Below, in pieces: positions 5,406-64,000 of a DNA stretch of 64,000 nucleotides. The position numbers were made by a program, and so were the translations under genes. The notes under the pieces are model-generated. The model did no database searches. It had not been told where the DNA came from and worked only from the letters and a program-made list of their open reading frames with translations. The first letter of the stretch is position 1; each line of letters starts with the position of its first letter. Source of the stretch: a virus (taxonomy: Duplodnaviria; Heunggongvirae; Uroviricota; Caudoviricetes); IMG/VR virus record IMGVR_UViG_3300011904_000029, positions 6,312 to 70,311 of that record. The stretch is one strand, 5' to 3'.

Positions 5406-6468
5406 GAGTATAGTTAATTGCGTTAGCTTGGAGAAAATCTGTTCTTGTTACAATTTCATCTTCTCCTCCTGTTCTCTTTTTGCTTCCATATGTAGCAATC
5501 CATCTTGACTTTAATTCTTGGTTTTCAGGATAAGGTTCTTCGAGTCCTGCGTTTCTACAGATTAAGTTGGCTAGATATTCCACGTAATCATGATATTCTT
5601 TAATGGATAAAGTATCTATTCCTTCAAAAATGTAACTAGCCCATACTTTTTCTCGTTTAACAGCCTCTTTTATATAATCCATAACATAATTATAATTATC
5701 TTTTGTGGCTAACTGCGGCTCTTCTTTCATTAGAATTTGAATCAGCATTCCATAAAAAGTCGAGTGCATATTTTCGTCAGTCCGAATCATAGAAATTAAG
5801 TTATTAGAGCCAATCATTTTTTGATCCCTTGCCAGAGAGTGGAAATAAACAAATCCCCCACTAAAATAAATTCCCTCTAAGACAAGGTTAGCTACGATTC
5901 CATAAAGAATATCTTGAAGTACCTCATTAGAAACTCCACCTTCATCTTGTTCAGCCATATATATCTTCGCAGCATCGACCATTTTTTGAATCGGATCAAT
6001 TACAAGTTGATTCCTATACACTAATTCAGGAATATTTCTTGTAAATTCAAATGCTTGCTCCTTCTCTTGTTGATTTAATACAGTGGACGTTAAGTATTGA
6101 TAACTTCGATTATGCAATTGTTCAAATGATGCAATCATAGAAATTACCGATCTAACTGATGAATCGGTGCATAAATAACCTAAAACAAAATTAAAGTCTG
6201 TTGCAATAGAATCTAACCAGTTTAATTTACCTGATATAATGTTATATACTTGTCTTTCTCTTGGCGTAAGTTTTTCTCTATACTCCTCAATATCCTTAGA
6301 CAGTTTCACCTCATCTTCTATCCAGTACTCTGCAAATAAAGACTTATTAAAATCGAGCATTGTAGGATACTTGATATTATCCCAATCTCGTATCCCACTT
6401 GATTTCCCCCCAAACACTTTTGTTGCTACGTTGCTTGCTTCTCCATCGTAAATCCGAAAGTTTGCCAT
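5377..6468 (-). CDS. nrdF: ribonucleotide reductase class Ib beta subunit
   Basis: 363 aa; diiron ligand region LVLEGIYFSGGF...IRTDENMHSTFYG, acidic C-terminus ...ESGEDFDL. Confidence 0.85.
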   Translation of the reverse strand: MANFRIYDGEASNVATKVFGGKSSGIRDWDNIKYPTMLDFNKSLFAEYWIEDEVKLSKDIEEYREKLTPRERQVYNIISGKLNWLDSIATDFNFVLGYLCTDSSVRSVISMIASFEQLHNRSYQYLTSTVLNQQEKEQAFEFTRNIPELVYRNQLVIDPIQKMVDAAKIYMAEQDEGGVSNEVLQDILYGIVANLVLEGIYFSGGFVYFHSLARDQKMIGSNNLISMIRTDENMHSTFYGMLIQILMKEEPQLATKDNYNYVMDYIKEAVKREKVWASYIFEGIDTLSIKEYHDYVEYLANLICRNAGLEEPYPENQELKSRWIATYGSKKRTGGEDEIVTRTDFLQANAINYTHESGEDFDL

Positions 6469-6488: not shown

Positions 6489-7889
6489 TTATGCTTCACA
6501 CATAATACAGTCTTCGTCACGCTCATATTCTTCTGTGTATGTATAATAAATAGTCTTAAGTTGCTTCTTCCATGCTCCAAGATCTAATCTTAGAAGTTCT
6601 GAGCCTTTGATTGATTTAGGCACGTGCATATTATGACTTACTCCCTGATCTATGAATTTTTGTGCTGCTGAAATTACATTAATTGCCCACATTTCATCCA
6701 TTTCAAATCCTGACTTATAGAACCATTTTGTTTGATTATTGTAGTTTGAAGGAACATAAATTACGTTCAGCCCAGACTTTTCTTCCCGATATATGACCTC
6801 ATATGGAGGGTCAATTGAAGGTGAAGAGTTCATAATCAATGAGTTTGAGCTTGTAGGCGCAATTGCGCTTAAATAAGCATTTCTCATTCCTTTGCTTGCT
6901 AAATCACGAAGTTCACTCCATTCATCAGAAACAAAACCTCGCTTATCAAAGAACTCTCCGGTTTGCCAGTCAGAACCTTCGAATAATGGATACGATCCTT
7001 TTTCTTGTGCTAATTTAGCTGAAGCTCTAATCATTGCTTTTAAATACTGTTTAAAAATGTCTTCAGTAAACTTAGACGCTTCTTCAGACTCCCATCTAAT
7101 ACCTCTAGAAGTCATTAGTGTAACCAATCCCATAGACCCTGCACCTACTGCTCTATAAAGCTTGTTAGTGTGCGTGGCTTGAGGTACAACAGTCCGATTC
7201 AGTGAAATTACGTTATCTAACATACGAAATTGGATATCAACAACACGTTGCAAATCAACATCCTTAGATTCATCAAATACATTATTCAAGACTAAAGATG
7301 AGAGGTTGCAAGTTACTAAACCATCTCCTATAACTTTCGTAACAACAAAGCCATCTTCATCTAAATTCTCAGATATACACCTATCAACTTCCATATTTTG
7401 TATGACCTCACTACAGAGGTTTGATCCAAAAGGCATCCCAACATGTGCATTCGGGTTCATCCTTGCTGCTGTATCATGGAAGTATAAATAAGGAGTACCA
7501 CCAGTTTTTCTTGATGTAAAAATAGACTTGTAAATATCTGTAGCATTAACCACTCGTTTAATTTCAAACGACATATCTTTTTCTGCCTTGCGATACCAAT
7601 AGGTAAAGGCATGATCTTCTTCATTCGGTTCTTCATCAGCCATTAACTTTTTCTTATCATAAAGACGATTCAAGTCAACACCCATCTTCTTCCTGAATTC
7701 ATAAGGATCAAAGATTGTCCAGTTTTGCTTAGATTCTAATCTTCTCATGTACTCATCAGGAAGAGTAACTGCTGTTTTAATTGAATGCGCCCTAAGTTCT
7801 TGAGATCCTGTTTTTAAGCGTAAGTCTAAAAAATCAAAAATATCATAATGCCATACAGGTAGGTATAATGCGATTCCTGCAACTCTTGA
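6489..7889 (-). CDS. nrdE: ribonucleotide reductase class Ib alpha subunit, exon 2
   Basis: contains AGIALYLPVWHYDIFDFLDLR, SNLCSEV active-site motif, C-terminal CxxC tail; exon start placed after intron terminal G at 7890. Confidence 0.85.
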   Translation of the reverse strand, partial: SRVAGIALYLPVWHYDIFDFLDLRLKTGSQELRAHSIKTAVTLPDEYMRRLESKQNWTIFDPYEFRKKMGVDLNRLYDKKKLMADEEPNEEDHAFTYWYRKAEKDMSFEIKRVVNATDIYKSIFTSRKTGGTPYLYFHDTAARMNPNAHVGMPFGSNLCSEVIQNMEVDRCISENLDEDGFVVTKVIGDGLVTCNLSSLVLNNVFDESKDVDLQRVVDIQFRMLDNVISLNRTVVPQATHTNKLYRAVGAGSMGLVTLMTSRGIRWESEEASKFTEDIFKQYLKAMIRASAKLAQEKGSYPLFEGSDWQTGEFFDKRGFVSDEWSELRDLASKGMRNAYLSAIAPTSSNSLIMNSSPSIDPPYEVIYREEKSGLNVIYVPSNYNNQTKWFYKSGFEMDEMWAINVISAAQKFIDQGVSHNMHVPKSIKGSELLRLDLGAWKKQLKTIYYTYTEEYERDEDCIMCEA

Positions 7890-8946
7890 CAAATTTGTTA
7901 CTACCTTATTAAAAGGCGGATAGGTCATTTCTGCCTATCTCTCTATGTCGCCATAGAGTTCAGACTATATCTTCTTGTGCGTGTGGTTATAAAAATTTAT
8001 TTTATATAATATGTATTTCTTTATTATGTAGTTCCATATGACATTCGAAGCATAATGTCTGTAAGTTTTCCTCTTTATTTGCTTCATTAATATCGTCAAA
8101 CTCCTCTATAGGAATTATGTGATGAACATTTAGTGCGTACTTTTCATAACTTTGAGTGTTGCAAATTTGACAAGTATAATTATCTTTTTTGACTTTTCTT
8201 TCTCGTATTCTTGACCACTTACTTCCATATCTATTTGGATTTTCTCTAGAAAACTGTCTATTTACACATCTATTTGAACAATATATTCTTTTATTTGACG
8301 GAACTGTAAAAGAAGGTCTTTCAAATTCCTTTTTGCAACAATAACATATTAATTTAATTGTATTTTGTTCGTTAGCAATATTGATACATTCTTGTGAGCA
8401 ATAGCTTATTTCTTTCCTATCTGCCCAAAACTCTTTATCACATACCTTACAGTTTAAATTATGTTTGTTTTTTCTACATAAATCAGAGCAATAATTACCG
8501 TCTTGTTGTATTCTCTGCTTAGCAATTTCAAACTCTTCTTTGCAATATTTACAATTAACTTTGACTTTTTTTGAGTTAATTGCTCCTAATTTAGCACTAC
8601 ACTTATGTGAGCATGTTCGTTTGGATCGCTCTCTTTTATTTTTTATATTTACTGTAAAAATGCTTTCACATATCTCACATTCCTTATCAACATATTCTTT
8701 TACTCTAGGTATTTATTATTCCTCCCTTGATCGCAACCACACGCACAAGTTTGGTTCGAGTTATAAAATTACTCTTATAACTACTTAGTCGTTGAACCTT
8801 CTACCTGGGAAACCAGGAAGCTCGGCTGCGAATTGCCCGCACTCTTGGGTTTTTAGGGTTCGCCGTGTCATTACTGCACGGTATCCTACCTTGAGATACT
8901 CGGGGTTCCCCGCAATTGACCAATTTTATACTCGGCTCATAAGTTA
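7890..8946 (-). mobile_element. group I intron interrupting nrdE, with embedded HNH endonuclease ORF
   Basis: exon 1 reads ...YVNQLG then stops; exon 2 resumes SRVAGIALYL (conserved YVNQxGxRxGAxAxYL block reconstituted); 5-prime exon end ACUCGGU pairs with internal guide GCCGAGU (U-G at splice site); intron ends with G; GC-rich structured core at 8760-8945. Confidence 0.7.
8002..8712 (-). CDS. intron-encoded HNH homing endonuclease with N-terminal zinc-ribbon repeats
   Basis: 236-codon open frame with C-terminal CQICN...HHIIP...NLQTLCFECHMELH HNH motif; preceded by GGGAGG RBS and TAATAA; no in-frame ATG/GTG/TTG near 5-prime end (first codon ATA). Confidence 0.65.
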   Translation of the reverse strand: MPRVKEYVDKECEICESIFTVNIKNKRERSKRTCSHKCSAKLGAINSKKVKVNCKYCKEEFEIAKQRIQQDGNYCSDLCRKNKHNLNCKVCDKEFWADRKEISYCSQECINIANEQNTIKLICYCCKKEFERPSFTVPSNKRIYCSNRCVNRQFSRENPNRYGSKWSRIRERKVKKDNYTCQICNTQSYEKYALNVHHIIPIEEFDDINEANKEENLQTLCFECHMELHNKEIHII

Positions 8947-9915
8947 ACCGAGTTGATTTACATATTCAGCTAGTACACTACTTAATCGTGATGGATGGAG
9001 AATTCCTGTTGCACGTCCTTTATATCCTCGAATCCATGAACCACTTGCGCGAAGGAACCCTAAATACTTCCCAATTCCTGCACCATTTTGACTAAATCTT
9101 GCTGTTTGTTCTAGGCTATTCATAATACTGATCAAATCATCATCAGGAGTAATAATGTGACATGATGACAATGTTCCGTGAGGCGCACCCGAACTCAGTA
9201 AAGTTGGTGTAGCTAATCCTACATAATGATTAGATAAAGCCCAATATGCTTCTTTTACTAACTCCATTCGCTTGGACTTCTTCTCATCTTTCATAAGATA
9301 GAGAGCAGAGGTTAAGAATCGCTCTTGTGGTAATTCTAAGACCTCGCCATTATAGCCCTTTTTAAGATAAGTATTGTTAAGCATGTAGAGTCCAGCATAG
9401 CTAAATTTTTTATCCTTTTCTTTTTCGATAAACTTTCCTGCTTTATTTAATTCTTTTTCAGTATATTGCTCCGTCAAGCTTTCATCATAAATGCCTTGCT
9501 CAACCATTTGAACAACAAAAGAGTAATAATCACCATAACCATTTTTATAATCAAAGCCCCTATTTTTAGACGCTTGCTTATACATCTTCCTCCTCAAAGT
9601 TGCTGCACTTAAATATGTGAAGTCTGGAGTTGACGGAGATATACAGTCATTTGAAAATCTAATAATCAAATCAAACAACTTGTCTGCCTCAAGTTTTTCC
9701 TTGGAATAAACGTAGTCGAATACATTTGCTCGGATTTTATTTAGAATATCTTTGTCGTATTCTTTCTCTGAATCTGTAATGATTTCATGGAAGAAGCGAT
9801 CAAACCTTTCTTCCATGAAATCTGATTCTTGAATGTGTGATTTTCTATCTTTAGTAATAACCGTCAAACAACTACACCCTTTCAGTCTTAAATTTGGTAA
9901 TAATTTATTTTGCAT
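8947..9915 (-). CDS. nrdE: ribonucleotide reductase class Ib alpha subunit, exon 1
   Basis: ATPTLLSSGAPHGTLSSCHII (radical-transfer Cys loop) and FTYLSAATLRRKMY; ends at 5-prime splice site. Confidence 0.85.
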
Positions 9916-9925
9916 ATATTATAAT

Positions 9926-13735: not shown

Positions 13736-14569
13736 TTAATTTAAGCTTATATTTAATTTACTTATGTACTCATTAATTAAATCTCCGACTCTACTAAATT
13801 CTGTGTATGGGATACGTAAAATTGAAATTCCATTTTCTTTGCAGAATGCATCTTTTCTATCATCTCTTTCTAAAACATAATCAAGAGTATTTTTAAAAAG
13901 CTCTCTTTCCTCGAAATGATGTATTCCATCATATTCAATAATAAACAAAACATTTCCATTTATATCATAAATTACAAAATCAAAGAACATTGATTCCCCA
14001 CTATTATTTTTATAATGAACCTCACGATCATATGTCACTCCTAAAGACTCCAAATGGTCAATCACTTCTTTTTCACCTAGAGAAAAATGACAATATTTAC
14101 ATCTTATGCCACTGCGTAAGTTACTAAGGAGCATTTCTGTCCTATGACCATTATTGCACACAACAGTCATTTTTTTGTGTGAGTTGACATATTCCCCTAT
14201 TCTCTTATATCCAATTGACTCAAGAAAACTGTCAACTTCCTTAATTGAAAATCTTTGTTGTACACTACTCTTTTGCAACCAACATTTTCTACATCTAACT
14301 CCTTTTAAAAAATGACTCCAATATATTTCAATTTCATGACCAGCGCTACACTTTACTTTTATTTTGGACTTAGAGTCCTTATAGCTATCTGATATAAGAA
14401 TATAATTTTCTTTTTCTAACTCCTCATTTATAAGATTAATACTCCAATTTGTTTTTCCTTTTCCATTCTTATCTTCTTTTTTGCAACTGGAGCACCTTCT
14501 TCCATTTTTATATTTTTGAAATGTCACTTTCCAATCATGCCCATAAGGGCATCTAACTATAATAGGCAC
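13736..14569 (-). CDS. zinc-ribbon / PD-(D/E)XK-like homing endonuclease paralog (family 2 of 3); annotated from GTG but frame stays open upstream to 14850
   Basis: 277 aa from GTG; C-terminal IEYDGIHHFEE...RDDRKDAFCKENGISILRIPY block shared with 930..2576 and 43898..45400; upstream in-frame extension encodes further CxxC...GH repeats. Confidence 0.5.
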   Translation of the reverse strand: MPIIVRCPYGHDWKVTFQKYKNGRRCSSCKKEDKNGKGKTNWSINLINEELEKENYILISDSYKDSKSKIKVKCSAGHEIEIYWSHFLKGVRCRKCWLQKSSVQQRFSIKEVDSFLESIGYKRIGEYVNSHKKMTVVCNNGHRTEMLLSNLRSGIRCKYCHFSLGEKEVIDHLESLGVTYDREVHYKNNSGESMFFDFVIYDINGNVLFIIEYDGIHHFEERELFKNTLDYVLERDDRKDAFCKENGISILRIPYTEFSRVGDLINEYISKLNISLN

Positions 14570-14853
14570 ATTACTATTGACAAAATCACTGACCAGTTCA
14601 TAGCCATCTTTCTCAAGACTTTTTACAACTTCGTGCTTTGTGATTTTAACCCTATTACTACAACGAGGACACCTTCTTCCTGATTTAAATTTTGAAAAGG
14701 AAGCTTCATATTGATGACCTTTTTCGCATCTTAATACGAGTTTTTCTGTGCTATTTTTATACTCATCGGAAACTAGTCTATACCCGATATTTTCTATATA
14801 CTCTTTAATATCTTTATATGCTAATCTTACCCCATGATTATGACCTTCTCCCT

Positions 14854-15570
14854 TTAATTTAAAATTTCAATTTTTAATTTCTTCCTTCCCCATTGCCAAA
14901 CTCTATCCCTATCAGCAATATATAAGTCTAGTATTTTACCTTTTATTGCTCCTCCACGATCTTGGCAAATTCTTGTCCCTACACTCTCAATGTTAATTTT
15001 TGTACCAAATGGAATATGTGGTGGGCAAGCAATAGTTACGCCTTCTTGAACATAAGCTCCACTTGCAGTTTTTCCATAACCTTTATCACCAGGACTCTTG
15101 CCAGTTGACTCATATCCAGCATGGTAAGCAGTAACTTCATAATAATCAACTTTACCAGATGAGTGACTACTTTTATTTGAGCCACTCATATTAGGGCCTG
15201 TATTGCTTTTACTCGTGTTAACACTACTAATGCTTAATCTATTAACCTTATCTTTTAGCCTATGTATTTCATCATCTTTAACTTTAATCTTTTTCCTTAA
15301 ATCTTCATTATTTTTATTTAATTCATTATTATCTTCCTTTAACCCTTTAATTTCTCCTCGCTGCTTTTCCAATTGACTGTTCTTATTGTAAACCTGATCC
15401 ATCAAAACCCTTTTATTTTTCTCTAGCTCATCAATCTCTTTCTGCTTATCTCCAATTGTCTTATTCATATCGTCCACTTTGTTTTCATATTTTACGACTG
15501 TATTCACATTTGCTCCAATCGCAACAGTTAAAGCAAGAGATATGAATATTGCCTTTTGATTAAAATTCAT
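14854..15570 (-). CDS. secreted coiled-coil protein with C-terminal 3D (MltA-like) cell-wall domain
   Basis: 238 aa; N-terminal signal/TM segment, long Lys/Glu-rich coiled coil, C-terminal YYEVTAYHAGYESTG...GKILDLYIADRD 3D-domain signature. Confidence 0.5.
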   Translation of the reverse strand: MNFNQKAIFISLALTVAIGANVNTVVKYENKVDDMNKTIGDKQKEIDELEKNKRVLMDQVYNKNSQLEKQRGEIKGLKEDNNELNKNNEDLRKKIKVKDDEIHRLKDKVNRLSISSVNTSKSNTGPNMSGSNKSSHSSGKVDYYEVTAYHAGYESTGKSPGDKGYGKTASGAYVQEGVTIACPPHIPFGTKINIESVGTRICQDRGGAIKGKILDLYIADRDRVWQWGRKKLKIEILN

Positions 15571-15671: not shown

Positions 15672-16916
15672 TTATTTAACATTTAATAGTTGCTGAAATA
15701 ATGCTTCACAAACATTAATAACTATACTATTACCAGTCATGCGATAGAGTCTTGTCTTTGACCTGTCTCTGCCTTTGTAAAACTTATCATTTACTGCTTT
15801 TCTTGCCACTTCGTAATCCCTATCAGTGAAACCCATTAGCCTAAACGCCTCCTTGTTGGTCATTTCCCTAATGAACAAATATTCTCCCTCTGCAATCAAG
15901 TCATCCTCACTCTTGACCAACTTGTATCCATCATCTATTTTTACGGCAAGCTTTAGTCCTTTTATTTGAGTTTTTGACACATTTTCTAATAACTCACTCA
16001 GTTCAATAGGATTTTTTTTATTAAAAATAGCTACCATAAAATCCTTAGTCACAGTCGTCACCGTATTACTTACGTCATCTTTTCTAATCTCCAGTTGTTG
16101 AGGCTGTCCCATATAGCTTCTTGTCCTTAAACTACAGCCCTTAACAATTCTTCTGTCCAAGACAACGTTATATGGAACCCCTTTAGACATATTGGCTGTT
16201 AAACATCTACTAGCATCATGGTCAGAGTCACTATGGTGCTCAAAATCCCAATGGGTTCTACCACCTTTTGTTTTTCTATTCATATACTCGATTGCTTTTT
16301 CAGTATGTATATGATTTTTTAATATATCTAAATCTGTTTCCAATTTATCTGAGAGTGATTTTTGATTAGGCATTGGCTCAGGGAAATCGAATCCTTTATC
16401 AATATCTTTACGAATACTAATCATAAAGATGCGCTCTCTATTTTGAGGAATTCCAAAATCACGAGCATTTAATATTTGCCAGTAGTTGTTATATCCTGCT
16501 TTTTCTAATTCCTCTTGCATTTCTTTAAACTCATTTTCAAACTTTTTACTTGTTAGTCCTTTTACATTTTCCATTAATGCATATTTTGGACTCTTAGCTC
16601 GGATAATTCTGAGAGCATCAAAAAACAATATCCCTCTATGATCATCAAACCCCAATTGTTTACCAGCTGCCGACCATGATTGACATGGTGGAGAGTAGCA
16701 AATAACATCGCAATCCGGTACATCTTCAATGTTTAATGTAGTTATATCCGTAGCAGGAAAATTTGTATTATGTATTGAATTATAGGCGGTAATCGCAAAT
16801 TCATCATTTTCAACTGCTAAAACTGTTTCATGTTCTATATTAAGATTTTCAAGTGATTTTTTCCAGGCTCCTATTCCTGCAAATAATTCAACTACTTTTA
16901 ATTTACCAATAAGAAA
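15672..16916 (-). CDS. DNA (cytosine-5)-methyltransferase (full-length frame; 5-prime end lacks canonical start / apparent frameshift)
   Basis: open frame encodes motif I VELFAGIGAW, motif IV CYSPPCQSWS, motif VI ENV (ALMENVKGL), motif VIII QNRERIFMI; ORF-track call 15672..16655 starts after motif IV at an internal TTG. Confidence 0.75.
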   Translation of the reverse strand, partial: FLIGKLKVVELFAGIGAWKKSLENLNIEHETVLAVENDEFAITAYNSIHNTNFPATDITTLNIEDVPDCDVICYSPPCQSWSAAGKQLGFDDHRGILFFDALRIIRAKSPKYALMENVKGLTSKKFENEFKEMQEELEKAGYNNYWQILNARDFGIPQNRERIFMISIRKDIDKGFDFPEPMPNQKSLSDKLETDLDILKNHIHTEKAIEYMNRKTKGGRTHWDFEHHSDSDHDASRCLTANMSKGVPYNVVLDRRIVKGCSLRTRSYMGQPQQLEIRKDDVSNTVTTVTKDFMVAIFNKKNPIELSELLENVSKTQIKGLKLAVKIDDGYKLVKSEDDLIAEGEYLFIREMTNKEAFRLMGFTDRDYEVARKAVNDKFYKGRDRSKTRLYRMTGNSIVINVCEALFQQLLNVK

Positions 16917-16930
16917 TCATCTCCATAATT

Positions 16931-16959
16931 ATTATAATATATTTATTTTAGTTCAATAA
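16931..16959 (-). promoter_or_regulatory. possible promoter TTATTG-17-TATAAT immediately upstream of methyltransferase gene
   Basis: minus strand TTATTGaactaAAATAAATatatTATAAT, -10 only 4 nt from ATG at 16926. Confidence 0.3.
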
Positions 16960-18859: not shown

Positions 18860-21154
18860 TTAAGCTGTCAATAACTCCACCTCTTCTTTTTCCATCCAGT
18901 TTGTTTCCGTTATTTCTAAGTCAACCACAACTGGAACTTTCATCCATTTTACATCTTCCATAATTTTCTTAATATAAGGGAAAATCCACTCCTCTCCTTC
19001 ATATACTAAAAATTGTAGTTCGTCATGAATATTTGCTAATGGAAGTGTTTTGCAATTATGTTTACGTAGGAACTCGCCAATCTCTACTACATAACTTTTT
19101 AATAGATCAGCACAAGAGCCTTGTACTAAATAGTTCCCAACTTTATATGCTTTTTCCGTGTCAGATAAATAATAAACTCTTCCATACATGTTTGTAGCGA
19201 AGTTGTCTTTTTGAATCTTCTTTGAAACTTCTCTTTGGTACCTTGCTACTTCTGGAAAAGTATTAGACCACCCAGTGACAAGAGCGTTTGCTACTTCCAT
19301 TGAAACTTCAAGAGATTCAGAAGCTTTTTTTGCTCCACCACCGTAATTCCGCATAAAGTTAAAAGTTTTTCCGATATTTCTCCAATATCCTCTAAAAGTT
19401 TTCTCGTCAATTATTGGCTTTTCATTATGTGAGTATTTCTTATATTTTTCTTCTGTAACATATTTCAATGCTTCTAATGCATTATGAGTAGTTTCGCTAT
19501 GTACATCGGTTGGAGTCCAATGGGTACCGTCTTCTTGTATCCAAGCAGATTTTCCTTCTGGAGTTTTTTCTGACCACCTTTTACGATCAGCATCATTCTC
19601 AAATTGATACATTTCACCTGTTAAATAATGTTTGCAGTACAGTGGCATATAAGCTCTGCATAAATTTAAATCAGGTTTTCCTAATAACACACTGTAATTG
19701 GCCTGTGCTCTCAATTCAATCTGGGAAAGGTCAAAATAGGCAATTTTACTATATTTTCCACCTCGTACTACAAATGCCCTCCTGGGAGAAAATATCTCCA
19801 TTTCTATTGGTGCTTTCCCTTCCCCATGCTCTTTTTCATATTTTTCTCCTTCTTCAGTTAAAATTCTTTCTTTAGGAAATTGTTGTGCATCTGATCCCAA
19901 TCTTCCTGAGACAGTGTTAAATTGTCCATACTGGGTATAAAAGTTTCCATCATACTCTGCAACTTCCATAATCCTTGAAATATATGTAGATTGCCATTTT
20001 TCTAGACGCCTTAGCCTCGTTATAATTTGTGCAACTCGGTTATCTTTGTGTTTTTTTAAAAACGCCTTATCAGTAGAACCTATTACTTCTCCTGTAATTT
20101 TTTCAAAGTATTCTCCTATTACTTTGCTTTGTGAGACAGTAAAATACTCTCCTACAATTTCCCACATTTCCTCGTATAACTTTTGGATTTCTTGATCACA
20201 TTTTACAAAAGAATCCTGTAAATAATCCATATTTACAGTCATTCCTACACGTTCCATTCTTAATAATTCCATTAACAATTTATTTTCTTGTTGAAAAAGT
20301 TTTTGTTGTTTTCGTTGTAAAATGTTTATATAAAACTTTTCTACAATTTCTAATGTATAAATTCCGTCACTATGAACATATTCCATCATTACATTTTTAT
20401 CTACTTCTGAATAGTTTGCAAAAGGATGTTCTTCCATCCACCTAAAATAAGCTTCTTCTACTTCTTTTGGAACTTCCAGCCATCTTTGCTTACGTTCTTT
20501 TGTAAACATATCCATATCATTGCGTTTTTTGACTTTATAGGCTTCTTTTAATTTCCCTATGCCCCATCCCAGTTCTTTTAATATCTCCTTTAGGATATTT
20601 CGTTTTTGGTCATTTATTTTTCTTAATTCCTTCTTTACCTCAGATTCAAATTCTGCTGCTCTTTCATCAATGTACTTTTCTGAAACCTTTTTTAGCCCTA
20701 ATAAATCTCCACCATCTCTAGCTGAAACTGCATCGAATGAAAATCTACAAATTCCCATTGTGTCAGAAATATTTGAGAGATTGAAAACTTCCTCTTCTGG
20801 TATCCCCCCATTAATCATCATATGGAGATCGAATTTTGTGTTGTGCCCCACTGCCATTTGAAATTTTTTTATAAGCTCTACAACTTGTTTCAATATTTCT
20901 GTACCATGTTCAAATGCAAACACTCTTCCCTTAAAATTTTCCTTTTGTTTTTGTTTAGGTAAAAGCCAGCCAAATACCCACATAAACGGTTTATCTTTTT
21001 TAATATGTAATCCTGTAGTTTCCGAGTCAAATACACAAAGCTTTGGATTATCTTCATAAAAATAATTATTTATTTCACTAAAACTTGTTACCCAGTATTT
21101 CTTATATTTAAATGTTACTTCAGTTTCTAGTTTAGGAGAGATTAATATAACTTT
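18860..21154 (-). CDS. family A DNA polymerase with 3-prime-5-prime exonuclease domain (true start upstream of track ORF; no canonical start codon in frame)
   Basis: motif A YFDLSQIELRAQ, motif B RNIGKTFNFMRNYGGG, motif C LANIHDELQF; Exo II HNTKFDLHMM; Exo I VFDSETTGL lies in frame upstream of the track start 20983, frame open to 21154. Confidence 0.8.
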   Translation of the reverse strand, partial: KVILISPKLETEVTFKYKKYWVTSFSEINNYFYEDNPKLCVFDSETTGLHIKKDKPFMWVFGWLLPKQKQKENFKGRVFAFEHGTEILKQVVELIKKFQMAVGHNTKFDLHMMINGGIPEEEVFNLSNISDTMGICRFSFDAVSARDGGDLLGLKKVSEKYIDERAAEFESEVKKELRKINDQKRNILKEILKELGWGIGKLKEAYKVKKRNDMDMFTKERKQRWLEVPKEVEEAYFRWMEEHPFANYSEVDKNVMMEYVHSDGIYTLEIVEKFYINILQRKQQKLFQQENKLLMELLRMERVGMTVNMDYLQDSFVKCDQEIQKLYEEMWEIVGEYFTVSQSKVIGEYFEKITGEVIGSTDKAFLKKHKDNRVAQIITRLRRLEKWQSTYISRIMEVAEYDGNFYTQYGQFNTVSGRLGSDAQQFPKERILTEEGEKYEKEHGEGKAPIEMEIFSPRRAFVVRGGKYSKIAYFDLSQIELRAQANYSVLLGKPDLNLCRAYMPLYCKHYLTGEMYQFENDADRKRWSEKTPEGKSAWIQEDGTHWTPTDVHSETTHNALEALKYVTEEKYKKYSHNEKPIIDEKTFRGYWRNIGKTFNFMRNYGGGAKKASESLEVSMEVANALVTGWSNTFPEVARYQREVSKKIQKDNFATNMYGRVYYLSDTEKAYKVGNYLVQGSCADLLKSYVVEIGEFLRKHNCKTLPLANIHDELQFLVYEGEEWIFPYIKKIMEDVKWMKVPVVVDLEITETNWMEKEEVELLTA

Positions 21155-56622: not shown

Positions 56623-56808
56623 TTAATCAAAATGCAGTAAATTAGTCTTTATCACATGTTCCTTTTCTAAAGAGTATAGTTTTGCATTATGTTTTTCAGC
56701 ATATTCTTTTGCCAATTTGATAGCATCCTCATCATTTTTAGCTTCGTGAAGTATTTTTACTGAATTGGATTTTTGTTTATGTTTTCTTATCAGCAACCTA
56801 TATTCCAC
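56623..56808 (-). CDS. hypothetical protein
   Basis: 61-aa ORF. Confidence 0.3.
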   Translation of the reverse strand: MEYRLLIRKHKQKSNSVKILHEAKNDEDAIKLAKEYAEKHNAKLYSLEKEHVIKTNLLHFD

Positions 56809-56861
56809 ATATTCGATTTTAATCCCTCCTTTTATTCTTTAATAAAAACCCTTCTTATACG

Positions 56862-61006: not shown

Positions 61007-63964
61007 TTAAACTACCTTCTGAGTATTCCATTGAATGTAGCTTTTGCCTTCTTCATCTTTTTCTTTAATTAGAAGCATGTTTAAAATATCAAAATCAACT
61101 CCAAACCTTTCTAAGATTTCATCATCATCTATGGAATCATTTTTCATAAAGTTGTTTAGTTTCTCTTTATTCATAATCAACTTAAGTAAATTAGACTCAA
61201 TACTGTTTCTAATTGTTAAAAAGTGTATTTCTTTTTGCTCTGTAGAGGTATATCTTATAAACCTTGCAAAAAACTGATGCATTGCTGCAAAGTTCCATTG
61301 TAGCTCAATAAGTAATACACGGTTCACAAAATCAATATTCATGCTGCTTGATAAAGATTGTTGAGTACAAATAAGTATTCCATTTTTTGTTTCTTTTAGT
61401 TTCTTTATTATCTCTTTTCTCTTGCTCAATGTTGTGCTGTCACCAGTAATTATAAACAATGGCCTTTCAGGGAATTTGTTTTTAATATAACTTGCATACA
61501 TATTAACTGTTTTAATGTGAGTACACCCTATTACAACATGCTCGTTATCCCATTCATGAAGCATATTAACCATTTCAATTGCTTTGGAAGGTGTTTGACT
61601 TGAATAGTAATCTTTAAAGATATTAGGTGTTACACATGCTTTTAACAGGCTGTTAAGTTGTTGTATAATCCTCAACAAAGCATCTTTTCTGCTGTTCCCT
61701 GTTGATCTGTACATATGAGTGAGTTTATAGAATTCTTCAATTACAATTCTATAAAGTTCTTTTTCAGCATGGTTAAACTCTGTTGTTTTCTGTATGATTT
61801 TATAAATATTCTTGCCGCTAACCTCTTCAAATGTTCGAGTTATCATTGTTTTATTAATTAGTTCGCTTAATTCTTCACTGTTATATATATCTTGATTCAT
61901 TTTCCCTACACCAAATACTGTTGCTTTCTCCGGTGAAAATGATCTTTTAAAATGTGTATGGCCTTTCTTATATGCAGGAAACGGCCACATATAAAATTTA
62001 TTAAATTCCTCCTTAATCTCTTTTGTCTTTTTATCCTCAATAAATATAATGTCATTCTTTGACAGCATATTAACTGAATTATTATAGAGCAATTCAAATG
62101 CTGTAAACGATTCTGGAATGTTATTTCTGGTACTTGTAGCACTCATAAGCAATTTAAACTTAACTCTTCTAAAACAGTTTAAAATGGCCTTTGTACGTTT
62201 AGATGATGGATTACAAATACCATCTGCTTCATCTAGTACCAACATAACTTTTTGACTTTGCATTTTTACAAACTTTTTAATTTGCTTTTGATATTTAGTT
62301 ATCATTCCAAAAGTCATAATTACTATTTGTCCATGTTTAATATTGTCAATATCTTTAAGTGATTTGATCCTAATAAAATCTATATCGTATGCCTTTAGAA
62401 TTTCGTCCCAATTGTTATTAATTGCAATTGCAGGTGCAATAAGGAATATATTTCTAATGCTGTTATGCTGCTTTCTATATAACATCTGTGCAATGGCCGA
62501 TAAACTTTTCCCTGCTCCTGTTCCCCATTGCAGATAACCATAATTTTTAGATAGCATTTTTATTGTATCTTCTTTTTGAATATTATTTAGTTTAATCTCC
62601 TGGCTATTTTCTTTATCATAAATCACCAAGTTTTCAAGAAAAGATTTTATTTTTTCGTCTTGTTTTATATTTTTAAATGAGCAATTCTGCTTCTGATATT
62701 CCTTGCTTTTCTTTTCAAATAATTTTATATACTTATGATCTTGAAAAGGATAGTTATCATTAATAATCATGTCATTAAAGCTTATCTCTTTGACTCCATT
62801 ATATGATTTTAAAAATTTTCTCTCCTTTGTGCTGTATGCTTTTAGCTTCAGACCATAGCGATTTTTTACAAGTCTTGTTATATGAACTTCTGGTTTTTTA
62901 TGCTGCTTTTTTAAAGTGTTTTTAAGATACCGAATAACTTTGTTTTTTGTTATCCTTACTTTCTGCCATTCCTCATAAGTCATTCCCTCTGGCTGCTCTT
63001 GTGTATAATACCTATTCAAATAGGCTTCACATTTAGAATAGTATTTATTGATTTTCGGATTACTCTTGATATCAAATAACAACTTATTTACTTTATAATG
63101 AAATTCATTTTCATCTTTATTTTGTGACATTGTTTCAAGAATAATTTTATTTTTAACTTGCTGCTTTTCATCAAGAATTGGTTTTATGTAATTGTTATAA
63201 ATATAATTTGATTCTGATTCAATTATTTCTAGCGATTTTATAGTATTGCTTTTATATGGCCTCTCTGTTACATGTTCGCTCTTTTTCTGGAAAAACATAA
63301 TCTTTGTTTCAAAATTATTGACCCCGACATGATTAAATGAGTCTGAAGGCAAAGTGAATTGTGACACAAAATTGAACATCTTATTAATCTCTGTTATCAT
63401 TCCACCGTCTACAAAGTCATCGCTTAGAAAGGATCTAGGTACAATTAATGCCATGATCCCACCAGGTTTTAATACTTCATATGATTTAATACAATAATAC
63501 AGTTGACTTAAATATTCATCATTTCCAACATCCCATTTTAAATTAAATGGTGGATTCCCTAAAACAATGTCAAACTGGATATCAGTTTTATAATTTCTAA
63601 TATCTTGATTTGTTATATTTGCATGTGGATATAAGTATTTTGAAACTTTATAAGCCTTTATATCTAATTCATTGCCATATACATTTAACTCGTTTGGAAG
63701 ATAGTTAAAAAAGTTACCCATCCCACTTGTTAAATCAATAATTAAATCATGCTCATTAGGTTTTAAACAGTCTATAAGAAATTTAGAAATTGTATGAGAT
63801 GTAAAGAATTGACCATTTTCTAATTCCTTTTTGGCTTCTGTATAATCATGAAAAGATGAATAGTCTTTAAAATCTAACCCATGCAGCCCACCATCACCAG
63901 TATAAGAATTAAATATATCCTCTTTTGAAATATTGTGTTGATCACATAAGTTATTATCAATCAA
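61007..63964 (-). CDS. N6-adenine DNA methyltransferase fused to SF2 (DEAD-box-type) helicase
   Basis: 985 aa; N-terminal amino-MTase motifs FFTSHTISKFLID, DLTSGMGNFF (motif I) and NPPFN (motif IV); C-terminal helicase motifs GTGAGKS (Walker A), LVLDEAD (motif II), LMSATS (motif III). Confidence 0.75.
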   Translation of the reverse strand: MIDNNLCDQHNISKEDIFNSYTGDGGLHGLDFKDYSSFHDYTEAKKELENGQFFTSHTISKFLIDCLKPNEHDLIIDLTSGMGNFFNYLPNELNVYGNELDIKAYKVSKYLYPHANITNQDIRNYKTDIQFDIVLGNPPFNLKWDVGNDEYLSQLYYCIKSYEVLKPGGIMALIVPRSFLSDDFVDGGMITEINKMFNFVSQFTLPSDSFNHVGVNNFETKIMFFQKKSEHVTERPYKSNTIKSLEIIESESNYIYNNYIKPILDEKQQVKNKIILETMSQNKDENEFHYKVNKLLFDIKSNPKINKYYSKCEAYLNRYYTQEQPEGMTYEEWQKVRITKNKVIRYLKNTLKKQHKKPEVHITRLVKNRYGLKLKAYSTKERKFLKSYNGVKEISFNDMIINDNYPFQDHKYIKLFEKKSKEYQKQNCSFKNIKQDEKIKSFLENLVIYDKENSQEIKLNNIQKEDTIKMLSKNYGYLQWGTGAGKSLSAIAQMLYRKQHNSIRNIFLIAPAIAINNNWDEILKAYDIDFIRIKSLKDIDNIKHGQIVIMTFGMITKYQKQIKKFVKMQSQKVMLVLDEADGICNPSSKRTKAILNCFRRVKFKLLMSATSTRNNIPESFTAFELLYNNSVNMLSKNDIIFIEDKKTKEIKEEFNKFYMWPFPAYKKGHTHFKRSFSPEKATVFGVGKMNQDIYNSEELSELINKTMITRTFEEVSGKNIYKIIQKTTEFNHAEKELYRIVIEEFYKLTHMYRSTGNSRKDALLRIIQQLNSLLKACVTPNIFKDYYSSQTPSKAIEMVNMLHEWDNEHVVIGCTHIKTVNMYASYIKNKFPERPLFIITGDSTTLSKRKEIIKKLKETKNGILICTQQSLSSSMNIDFVNRVLLIELQWNFAAMHQFFARFIRYTSTEQKEIHFLTIRNSIESNLLKLIMNKEKLNNFMKNDSIDDDEILERFGVDFDILNMLLIKEKDEEGKSYIQWNTQKVV

Positions 63965-64000
63965 ATATAAAATTTTATCGTTTATCTCCTTCCTGTTCTC

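Follow-up and report, generated by a model that had tools for sequence, protein, structure and literature searches.

A complete phage C5 DNA methyltransferase gene with a probable near-cognate ATT start behind an ordinary ribosome-binding site

The locus and its predicted product

The stretch of DNA considered here (the window, 64,000 nucleotides, i.e. positions 6,312 to 70,311 of the Caudoviricetes record IMGVR_UViG_3300011904_000029 of IMG/VR) carries on its minus strand a cytosine-5 (C5) DNA methyltransferase gene, and where the translation of this gene begins is the subject of the present work. The public record of the same DNA is NCBI assembly GCA_032100165.1, contig DAMDKB010000005.1 (163,871 bp), a third-party assembly, in which the call at the locus is a protein of 300 amino acids (aa; P0003) beginning at MENVKGL and devoid of motifs I and IV. 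The minus-strand frame from 16916 to 15672 comprises 414 codons without a stop, opens straight after a TGA and translates as FLIGKLKVVELFAGIGAW...DVICYSPPCQSWS...ENV...QNRER...GNS. Judged from this translation, it encodes a complete C5 DNA methyltransferase (PF00145, Dcm-type). The features of the locus, and those of other genes discussed below, are collected in table 1.

The Pfam profile PF00145 matches the whole frame with an E-value of 3.3e-74 (250.7 bits; cutoff 22), from residue 6 to residue 411 of the protein and over profile positions 1-323/324, that is at full length, so that the open frame is not a product of chance. Both the F-x-G-x-G of motif I and the P-C-Q with the catalytic Cys of motif IV (SPPCQSWS) are present, in columns that are nearly invariant in the alignment of homologues (alignment A1). 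The catalytic N-terminal half aligns with M.HhaI over residues 12-202 (E=2e-40), and the alignment with M.HaeIII begins at residue 3 of the latter, which makes a protein starting two residues before beta-strand 1 normal for the fold.

An earlier note on this DNA had placed motifs I and IV upstream of the called open reading frame (ORF), and this is borne out: the first in-frame ATG, GTG or TTG is TTG 16655, codon 88 of the frame, which is preceded by 87 codons without any such triplet and lies 3' of both motifs. Unless its start was lost very recently, the gene does not have the look of a pseudogene, with neither internal stops nor frameshifts in 414 codons, all catalytic motifs retained and a frame that stays open in DNA of 32% GC. 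Furthermore, the ratio of non-synonymous to synonymous substitution (dN/dS) in the 84 codons that precede the first canonical start is 0.135-0.142 against two relatives (loci L002 and L003), and the synonymous sites are nearly saturated in the same comparisons (proportion of synonymous differences, pS, about 0.68); a ratio of about 0.14 points to protein-level constraint on the N-terminus along the L002 and L003 lineages.

Table 1. Features of the methyltransferase locus, codons at the start column of its relatives and other window genes with weak or anomalous starts
Feature	Position or loci	Strand	Basis or remark
Proposed full C5 DNA methyltransferase coding sequence	15672..16910	minus	ATT 16910 to stop TAA 15674-15672, 412 codons
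ATT, proposed non-canonical start codon	16908..16910	minus	homologue start column; 9 nt 3' of GGAGA core
Extended Shine-Dalgarno sequence GGAGATGAT	16916..16924	minus	8/9 identical to GGAGGTGAT; includes ATG 16920
TTT run	16914..16916	minus	removal of one T puts ATG 16920 in frame; preferred reading, spacer between Shine-Dalgarno sequence and start
In-frame TGA opening the methyltransferase frame	16917..16919	minus	frame translation
Out-of-frame mini-ORF ATG GAG ATG ATT TCT TAT TGG TAA	16903..16926	minus	probably not a functional start
Promoter-like TTGAAC-17 nt-AATAAT (putative)	16928..16956	minus	consensus scan, 9/12 matches; overlaps perfect TATAAT 16936-16931
Motif I (ELFAGIGAW), AdoMet-binding loop (AdoMet, S-adenosylmethionine)	16863..16889	minus	translation and alignment A1
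Motif IV (DVICYSPPCQSWS)	16671..16709	minus	catalytic Cys TGT 16685-16683
Motif VI (ENV)	16563..16571	minus	invariant columns E116 N117 V118 in A1
Motif VIII (QNRER)	16431..16445	minus	invariant columns Q158-R162 in A1
Motif X (GNS)	15726..15734	minus	invariant columns G395 N396 S397 in A1
Start column ATA	L002, L003/4, L005, L008, L016, L018, L036/37, L047, L063		DNA survey
Start column ATT	window, L015, L125		DNA survey
Start column TTG	L012, L014/L092, L017, L019		DNA survey
polA ORF	18860..21154	minus	Shine-Dalgarno AAAGGGGTGA, 9 nt, then ATA 21148-21146; start region 21164-21146
HNH endonuclease	8002..8712	minus	Shine-Dalgarno AAGGGAGG, 8 nt, then ATA 8712-8710, first codon after in-frame TAA
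Possible ATC start 56817	ORF 56623-56838, 71 codons	minus	strong Shine-Dalgarno AAGGAGGGATT, then in-frame ATC at 7 nt
Zinc-ribbon/DUF2726 gene	13736..14866	minus	four zinc-ribbon repeats; start region 14858-14828; 365-codon ORF

The start region

On the minus strand, the DNA in which translation would begin reads ...TATAATAATT ATGGAGATGATTTCTT ATT GGT AAA TTA AAA GTA GTT... The earlier note had described the frame as opening right after the TGA, with ATGs 16926 and 16920 in another frame, and had pointed out that removal of one T from 16916-16914 yields ATG ATT CTT ATT GGT AAA; as statements about the sequence, all of these hold on translation. The two ATGs share a single other frame, which encodes MEMISYW* and ends at TAA 16905-16903.

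Which of the available codons could be served by a ribosome-binding site was judged from the pairing of the Shine-Dalgarno (SD) sequence, whose reference form GGAGGTGAT is the complement of the 3' end of Bacillus-type 16S rRNA. For ATT 16910, the free energy (dG) of the SD:anti-SD duplex is -10.2 kcal/mol, a value that coincides with the median for 51 genes of the window, without exceeding it in strength, and that falls on the 5th percentile of background. For ATG 16920 it is -5.2 kcal/mol, with zero spacing between codon and SD, and for ATG 16926 it is +1.5 kcal/mol, i.e. there is no SD. In the window, 45 genes have a clear SD; their spacings are most often 6-8 nt and go up to 12 nt. ATG 16920 has no alternative SD, as the DNA 5' of it is without any G for about 40 nt. 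Thus, with ATG 16920 inside the SD without spacing and ATG 16926 without an SD, neither is a credible start for which the frame would need repair. No SD precedes TTG 16655 either, nor the ATG (16574-16572) from which MENVKGL is called.

A TATAAT 4 nt before ATG 16926 had also been reported in the earlier note; it is present at 16936-16931 and carries no significance, since promoter-like sites are no commoner than chance in this AT-rich DNA (8 found, 10.2 expected in shuffled sequence). A scan of the whole window against Rfam gave nothing at gathering thresholds, and so no leader RNA 5' of the methyltransferase.

Homologues and the start column

The phage collection contains no near-identical DNA of the methyltransferase locus, and hence no annotated twin for comparison, and the best annotated phage methyltransferases in it reach at most about 38% identity; relatives from a large protein database share 50-77%, among which P0001 and P0002 match the window protein over its full length at 64-77%. 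Exactly on the window's ATT, alignment A1 places the initial Met of five homologues (P0006, P0008, P0013, P0016 and P0020) as well as the Leu that three others (P0010, P0025 and P0027) owe to a TTG, and the N-termini at that column read M-x-K-L-K-V-V, or L-x-K-L-K where TTG has been translated literally. In the alignment to homologous methyltransferases, which the earlier note had proposed as a check, many starts fall on the ATT column, and the spacing of the ATT itself from its SD is normal.

The closest homologues (P0001, P0002, P0009 and P0011) have three more residues in their annotation, which gives M-x-x-I-x-K-L-K. The DNA of three such loci reads AGGAG ATG AAT GCA ATA AGT AAG (L003), AAGGA GTG GTT GAT ATA GAA AAA (L002) and GAGG GTG ATT AAT ATA GAA AAA (L005): in all three, the codon annotated as start (ATG or GTG) borders on the SD or lies in it, and an ATA stands at the column of the window's ATT, 7-8 nt past the SD core. 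As these sequences show, the longer N-termini are gene-caller picks of an SD-embedded ATG or GTG. The same layout recurs at L101 (AGGAGGTGATAAAT ATG AAC AAG), with a plain ATG at the start column (aggaggtgataaatATG).

The survey of the start column at the DNA level covered 171 fetched loci with 130 distinct start regions. An automatic classifier of non-canonical starts over-called (e.g. the L066 group, L042, L055, L109 and L110), and only the manually checked set was counted. ATA or ATT occupies the column in at least 12 distinct relatives, the two closest among them, and ATG or TTG in many others; of the 15 distinct relatives that are at least 59% identical, four have ATG there, five TTG, four ATA and two ATT. 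All codons observed there differ from ATG by one base, and they lie about 5-10 nt, mostly 7-8, from the SD. Like the window, four relatives (L016, L018, L063 and L125) have no in-frame ATG, GTG or TTG between the upstream stop and motif I, and in a fifth (L047) the only in-frame canonical codon before motif I is a GTG inside beta-strand 1; all five have long open ORFs. The nearest neighbours of such genes are often canonical (L015 is 84% identical to L101, with ATG; L018 is 82% identical to L092 and L063 85% to L060, both with TTG), from which it follows that the non-canonical state was gained, or lost again, in no fewer than about eight lineages. The spacer from GGAG to the start column measures 8 nt in L002, 9 nt in L003 and L101 and 10 nt in the window, a variation that does not respect the frame and fits an untranslated spacer rather than coding sequence.

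Several relatives have peculiarities of their own. L093 (IMGVR_UViG_2831987924_000001), 71% identical and one of the four ATG relatives counted above, has a TAG in place of the motif I Glu (MNTLKVV*LF) and is likely a pseudogene. The closest homologue (L003/L004; P0001, 657 aa) contains a Hint-domain (intein-like) insert of about 260 aa in motif IV, between PP and CQ. A separate methyltransferase group in gut viral contigs (L066, L088, L159, L162, L165, L167 and L171) has an ATG abutting AAGG (ataAGGATGaagaat), with an in-frame ATA 9 nt past that ATG; this group was flagged automatically and was excluded from the counts.

Taken together, an intact methyltransferase gene starting at the weak codon ATT 16910 behind a normal ribosome-binding site is the reading that these comparisons favour, with a probability of roughly 65%. 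The ATT stands at normal SD spacing, and no canonical start gives the complete protein. The gene would belong to an SPbeta-like Bacillota phage or prophage and would specify a functional enzyme. Its extended SD, of ordinary strength, would pair with the 3' end of 16S rRNA and thereby bring the near-cognate ATT, 9 nt downstream, into the P site, and the recurrence of weak starts (ATT, ATA and TTG) at this column could be explained if low translation of a DNA-modifying enzyme were favoured. We infer that ATT is used in vivo, that expression is reduced as a result and that this reduction has been selected for. As ATG 16920 is part of the SD and ATG 16926 is without one, there is no frame break to explain, and the apparent break is probably an artefact of taking the SD-internal ATG as the start. 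The description of the locus in the earlier note as a frame break at a T-run is, therefore, probably wrong, and of the three options offered there (inactivation, mis-assembly or initiation at ATT) the last is favoured and the other two are less supported.

Other weak or anomalous starts in the window

A scan of the window for ORFs with long open leaders returned four, and a stop-to-stop ORF map gave the same four; among the about 115 densely packed ORFs of that map, no other obviously broken gene or mid-gene frameshift was found. Two of the window's genes other than the methyltransferase have an ATA behind an SD. The first is polA, the public call of which begins 55 codons later; the 54 skipped codons after the ATA carry the ExoI motif FDSETTG, and six relatives (72-76% identity) have ATG or TTG exactly on the column of the window's ATA, with M-L-I-Q-P-K-L-E-T-E-V aligned to x-L-I-S-P-K-L-E-T-E-V in the window. 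On this alignment, polA appears to start at ATA 21148.

The second is an HNH endonuclease ORF, in which 225 of 236 codons pass without a canonical start. It splits the large subunit of ribonucleotide reductase into two pieces (6492-7934 and 8947-9918) that abut at Pfam barrel positions 74/75, an interruption like that by the SPbeta bnrdE intron. Around this ORF, no group I intron model matched in Rfam at gathering thresholds, and the relatives retrieved for the endonuclease matched its C-terminal HNH motif only, giving no comparative view of the ATA column. Where the intervening sequence meets the downstream ribonucleotide reductase exon, a 57-bp stretch (7918-7974) is 96.6% identical to the Lysinibacillus phages vB_LfM_LysYB1 and LysYB2; the matching phage DNA is unannotated, and within the first 25 kb of the window no other match to phage DNA is near-identical.

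In the short ORF at 56623-56838, where an ATC may serve as start, 16 nt separate the SD from the nearest in-frame GTG, and the neighbouring ATG is out of frame.

The zinc-ribbon gene is of another kind. Its well-spaced ATG 14835 (dG -13.5) reads ATG GGG TAA, and the long ORF lies in the -1 frame; homologues start M-G-x-K/R-L, and the window has G4 where G5 would be needed. Protein homologues were used for this comparison, a pattern scan having found no relatives of the gene in IMG/VR. The anomaly could reflect a true frameshift or an error of assembly, or else ribosomes could slip by -1 on the G GGG that precedes the stop. The public call at this gene is 277 aa long and cuts repeat 2.

Alternative explanations

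Five observations weigh against a start at ATT 16910. Its 9-nt spacing is acceptable and yet lies on the long side of the window distribution. Deletion of one T would give MILIGKLKVV, which matches in length the annotated N-termini MNAISKLK, MVDIEKLK and MINIEKLK. A genuine 1-nt frame break sits in the G-run of the zinc-ribbon gene, directly past the ATG and 2 kb from the methyltransferase, so that indels near starts do occur in this sequence. The TAG in motif I of L093 indicates that the methyltransferase is sometimes inactivated. Finally, the two assemblies available for the locus, from JGI and from NCBI, may stem from the same reads.

Three of these points are also what speaks for a true frameshift, in which the ancestral start would have been ATG 16920 (M-I-L-I-G-K-L-K...) and the insertion of one T would have left either a young pseudogene or an inactive, N-terminally shortened product: the restored N-terminus is as long as those annotated in the closest homologues, the neighbouring zinc-ribbon gene is truly broken by 1 nt just past its start, and inactivation occurs in the family. 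We nevertheless regard a frameshift as unlikely. The start that it would restore overlaps the SD at zero spacing, with no G in the preceding 40 nt or so to provide another; the upstream ATG or GTG of the homologues is SD-embedded as well, and several relatives do without any upstream canonical codon; the 414 codons run without a stop, and with no motif lost, in DNA of 32% GC; and neither TTG 16655 nor the ATG of MENVKGL has an SD.

A sequencing or assembly error, by which the true genome would have TT at 16916-16914 and would start at ATG 16920 or 16926, could be suspected because the record is a third-party assembly (DAMDKB010000005.1) and because the zinc-ribbon anomaly is likewise found at a homopolymer. 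A run of three bases is, however, a poor candidate for a consensus indel, mid-gene frameshifts were seen in none of the about 115 ORFs of the window, and the corrected ATG would still be without usable SD spacing. Furthermore, the JGI record, on a contig of 384,302 bp, has identical shortened calls for both anomalous genes (P0121 and P0122); for the methyltransferase this is the same call of 327 aa (P0121), which, as far as a comparison of protein calls can tell, suggests that a second assembly shares the arrangement of frames upstream. An error of this kind is, on balance, improbable.

Least probable by far is a leaderless mRNA or programmed recoding, with a start at ATG 16926 or 16920 and a +1 shift before TAA 16905, for although the TATAAT 4 nt before ATG 16926 and a transcription start that TTGAAC-17-AATAAT would set near A16920 could suit the former, and the slippery G GGG TAA of the neighbouring zinc-ribbon gene could support a -1 slip, the promoter-like matches are at chance level, ATG ATT TCT TAT TGG TAA offers no site for +1 tRNA re-pairing and relatives do not share the out-of-frame layout. 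A programmed +1 frameshift of the prfB type was considered and rejected, there being no slippery re-pairing codon and the arrangement being missing in relatives.

Significance

Initiation at AUU or AUA and C5 methyltransferases of phages are both already known, and it is the pattern across one clade and one phage that is of modest interest. The start column of a single phage methyltransferase clade switches repeatedly among ATG, TTG, ATA and ATT, and only a minority of its members have AUG there, a pattern suggestive of selection for a low dosage of the enzyme. Weak starts dominate this column and turn up again in other genes of the phage whose products act on DNA. It may be asked, tentatively and with more doubt than confidence, whether the phage lineage deliberately throttles its DNA-acting enzymes (the methyltransferase, DNA polymerase A and the intron homing endonuclease) via weak AUA, AUU or UUG starts behind good SDs; the zinc-ribbon gene may reach the same throttling by a -1 slip on AUG GGG UAA. 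If this were true, the policing of such codons by initiation factor 3 (IF3) and an efficiency that can vary with the medium would couple the expression of these enzymes to the physiological state of the host.

For annotation, the consequence is that standard gene callers shorten or mis-start such genes in a systematic way, as seen in the methyltransferase of 300 aa or 327 aa without its catalytic Cys, in the polymerase without its ExoI motif and in the public calls of relatives that are 'started' at an ATG or GTG within the SD. Annotation of the methylome and of defence and anti-defence functions in phages of Bacillota would, as a result, under-call active methyltransferases.

Comparison with known systems

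The C5 methyltransferases of SPbeta-group Bacillus phages, known from the work of the Trautner laboratory (MtbP/M.SPBetaI, M.SPRI and M.Phi3TI), are self-protective and in part multispecific. The window shares with them a PF00145 enzyme in an SPbeta-like context, which comprises a gene with a YosH_C domain, polA and a ribonucleotide reductase that is split by an intervening sequence with an HNH ORF. The SPbeta enzyme MtbP shields the phage DNA against restriction by the host (PMC8270828). The look for a cognate restriction enzyme in the window covered the methyltransferase's immediate neighbours, i.e. the polA side and the 3D-domain gene. A second gene of the DNA-modification type is found at 61007-64000 (minus strand), where a large ORF that exceeds 985 aa and continues beyond the window has an N6 DNA methylase domain fused to a DEAD/ResIII helicase.

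Between motifs VIII and IX, the methyltransferases of this clade differ by whole modules, with A+C in the window, A+B+C in P0001 and P0002 and B+C in P0004 and others. At about 16190-16130 (minus strand; residues about 240-262), the window enzyme is without a neatly delimited module (..LIDYLEEDATLPILHNIYGGFKE..SPTIRTSAGGGH.PSV) that spans about 50 aa in P0001 and P0002; other homologues carry this module and are without the one that precedes it in the window (..SRCLTANMSKGVPYNVV). In alignment A1, taken alone, such module-sized presence and absence is suggestive of tandem target-recognising domains, and the shuffling resembles what has been described for phage methyltransferases with several specificities. 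The variable region itself (16340-15870) had no match at E<=1e-3 when searched with tblastn against 50,697 phage records, including the domains of SPbeta and SPR type. Unlike that of M.HhaI and M.HaeIII, type II C5 methyltransferases of solved structure, the variable region of the window enzyme is longer and modular.

With respect to initiation, AUU is familiar as the start of infC in E. coli. In S. aureus, ribosome profiling with retapamulin (Ribo-RET) together with reporters has identified an AUU start in cvfC1 and AUA starts in ccpN, infC and citZ, which are directed by extended SD motifs and yield about 10-30% of the output of AUG; the AUA of ccpN is conserved with its SD in B. subtilis, and AUU and AUA codons are policed by IF3, with an efficiency that can vary with the growth medium (PMC13009471). 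Like these genes, the window methyltransferase has a near-cognate Ile codon at normal spacing behind an SD extended into GGAGxTGAT, no canonical alternative and a non-canonical codon retained in close relatives, and attenuated translation is to be expected of it. The S. aureus examples are regulatory and housekeeping genes of the host, the starts of which were mapped experimentally, whereas those of the window belong to a phage methyltransferase, polA and a homing endonuclease and are indicated by comparative evidence. Furthermore, unlike in the S. aureus cases, the start column of the methyltransferase clade switches often among ATG, TTG, ATA and ATT.

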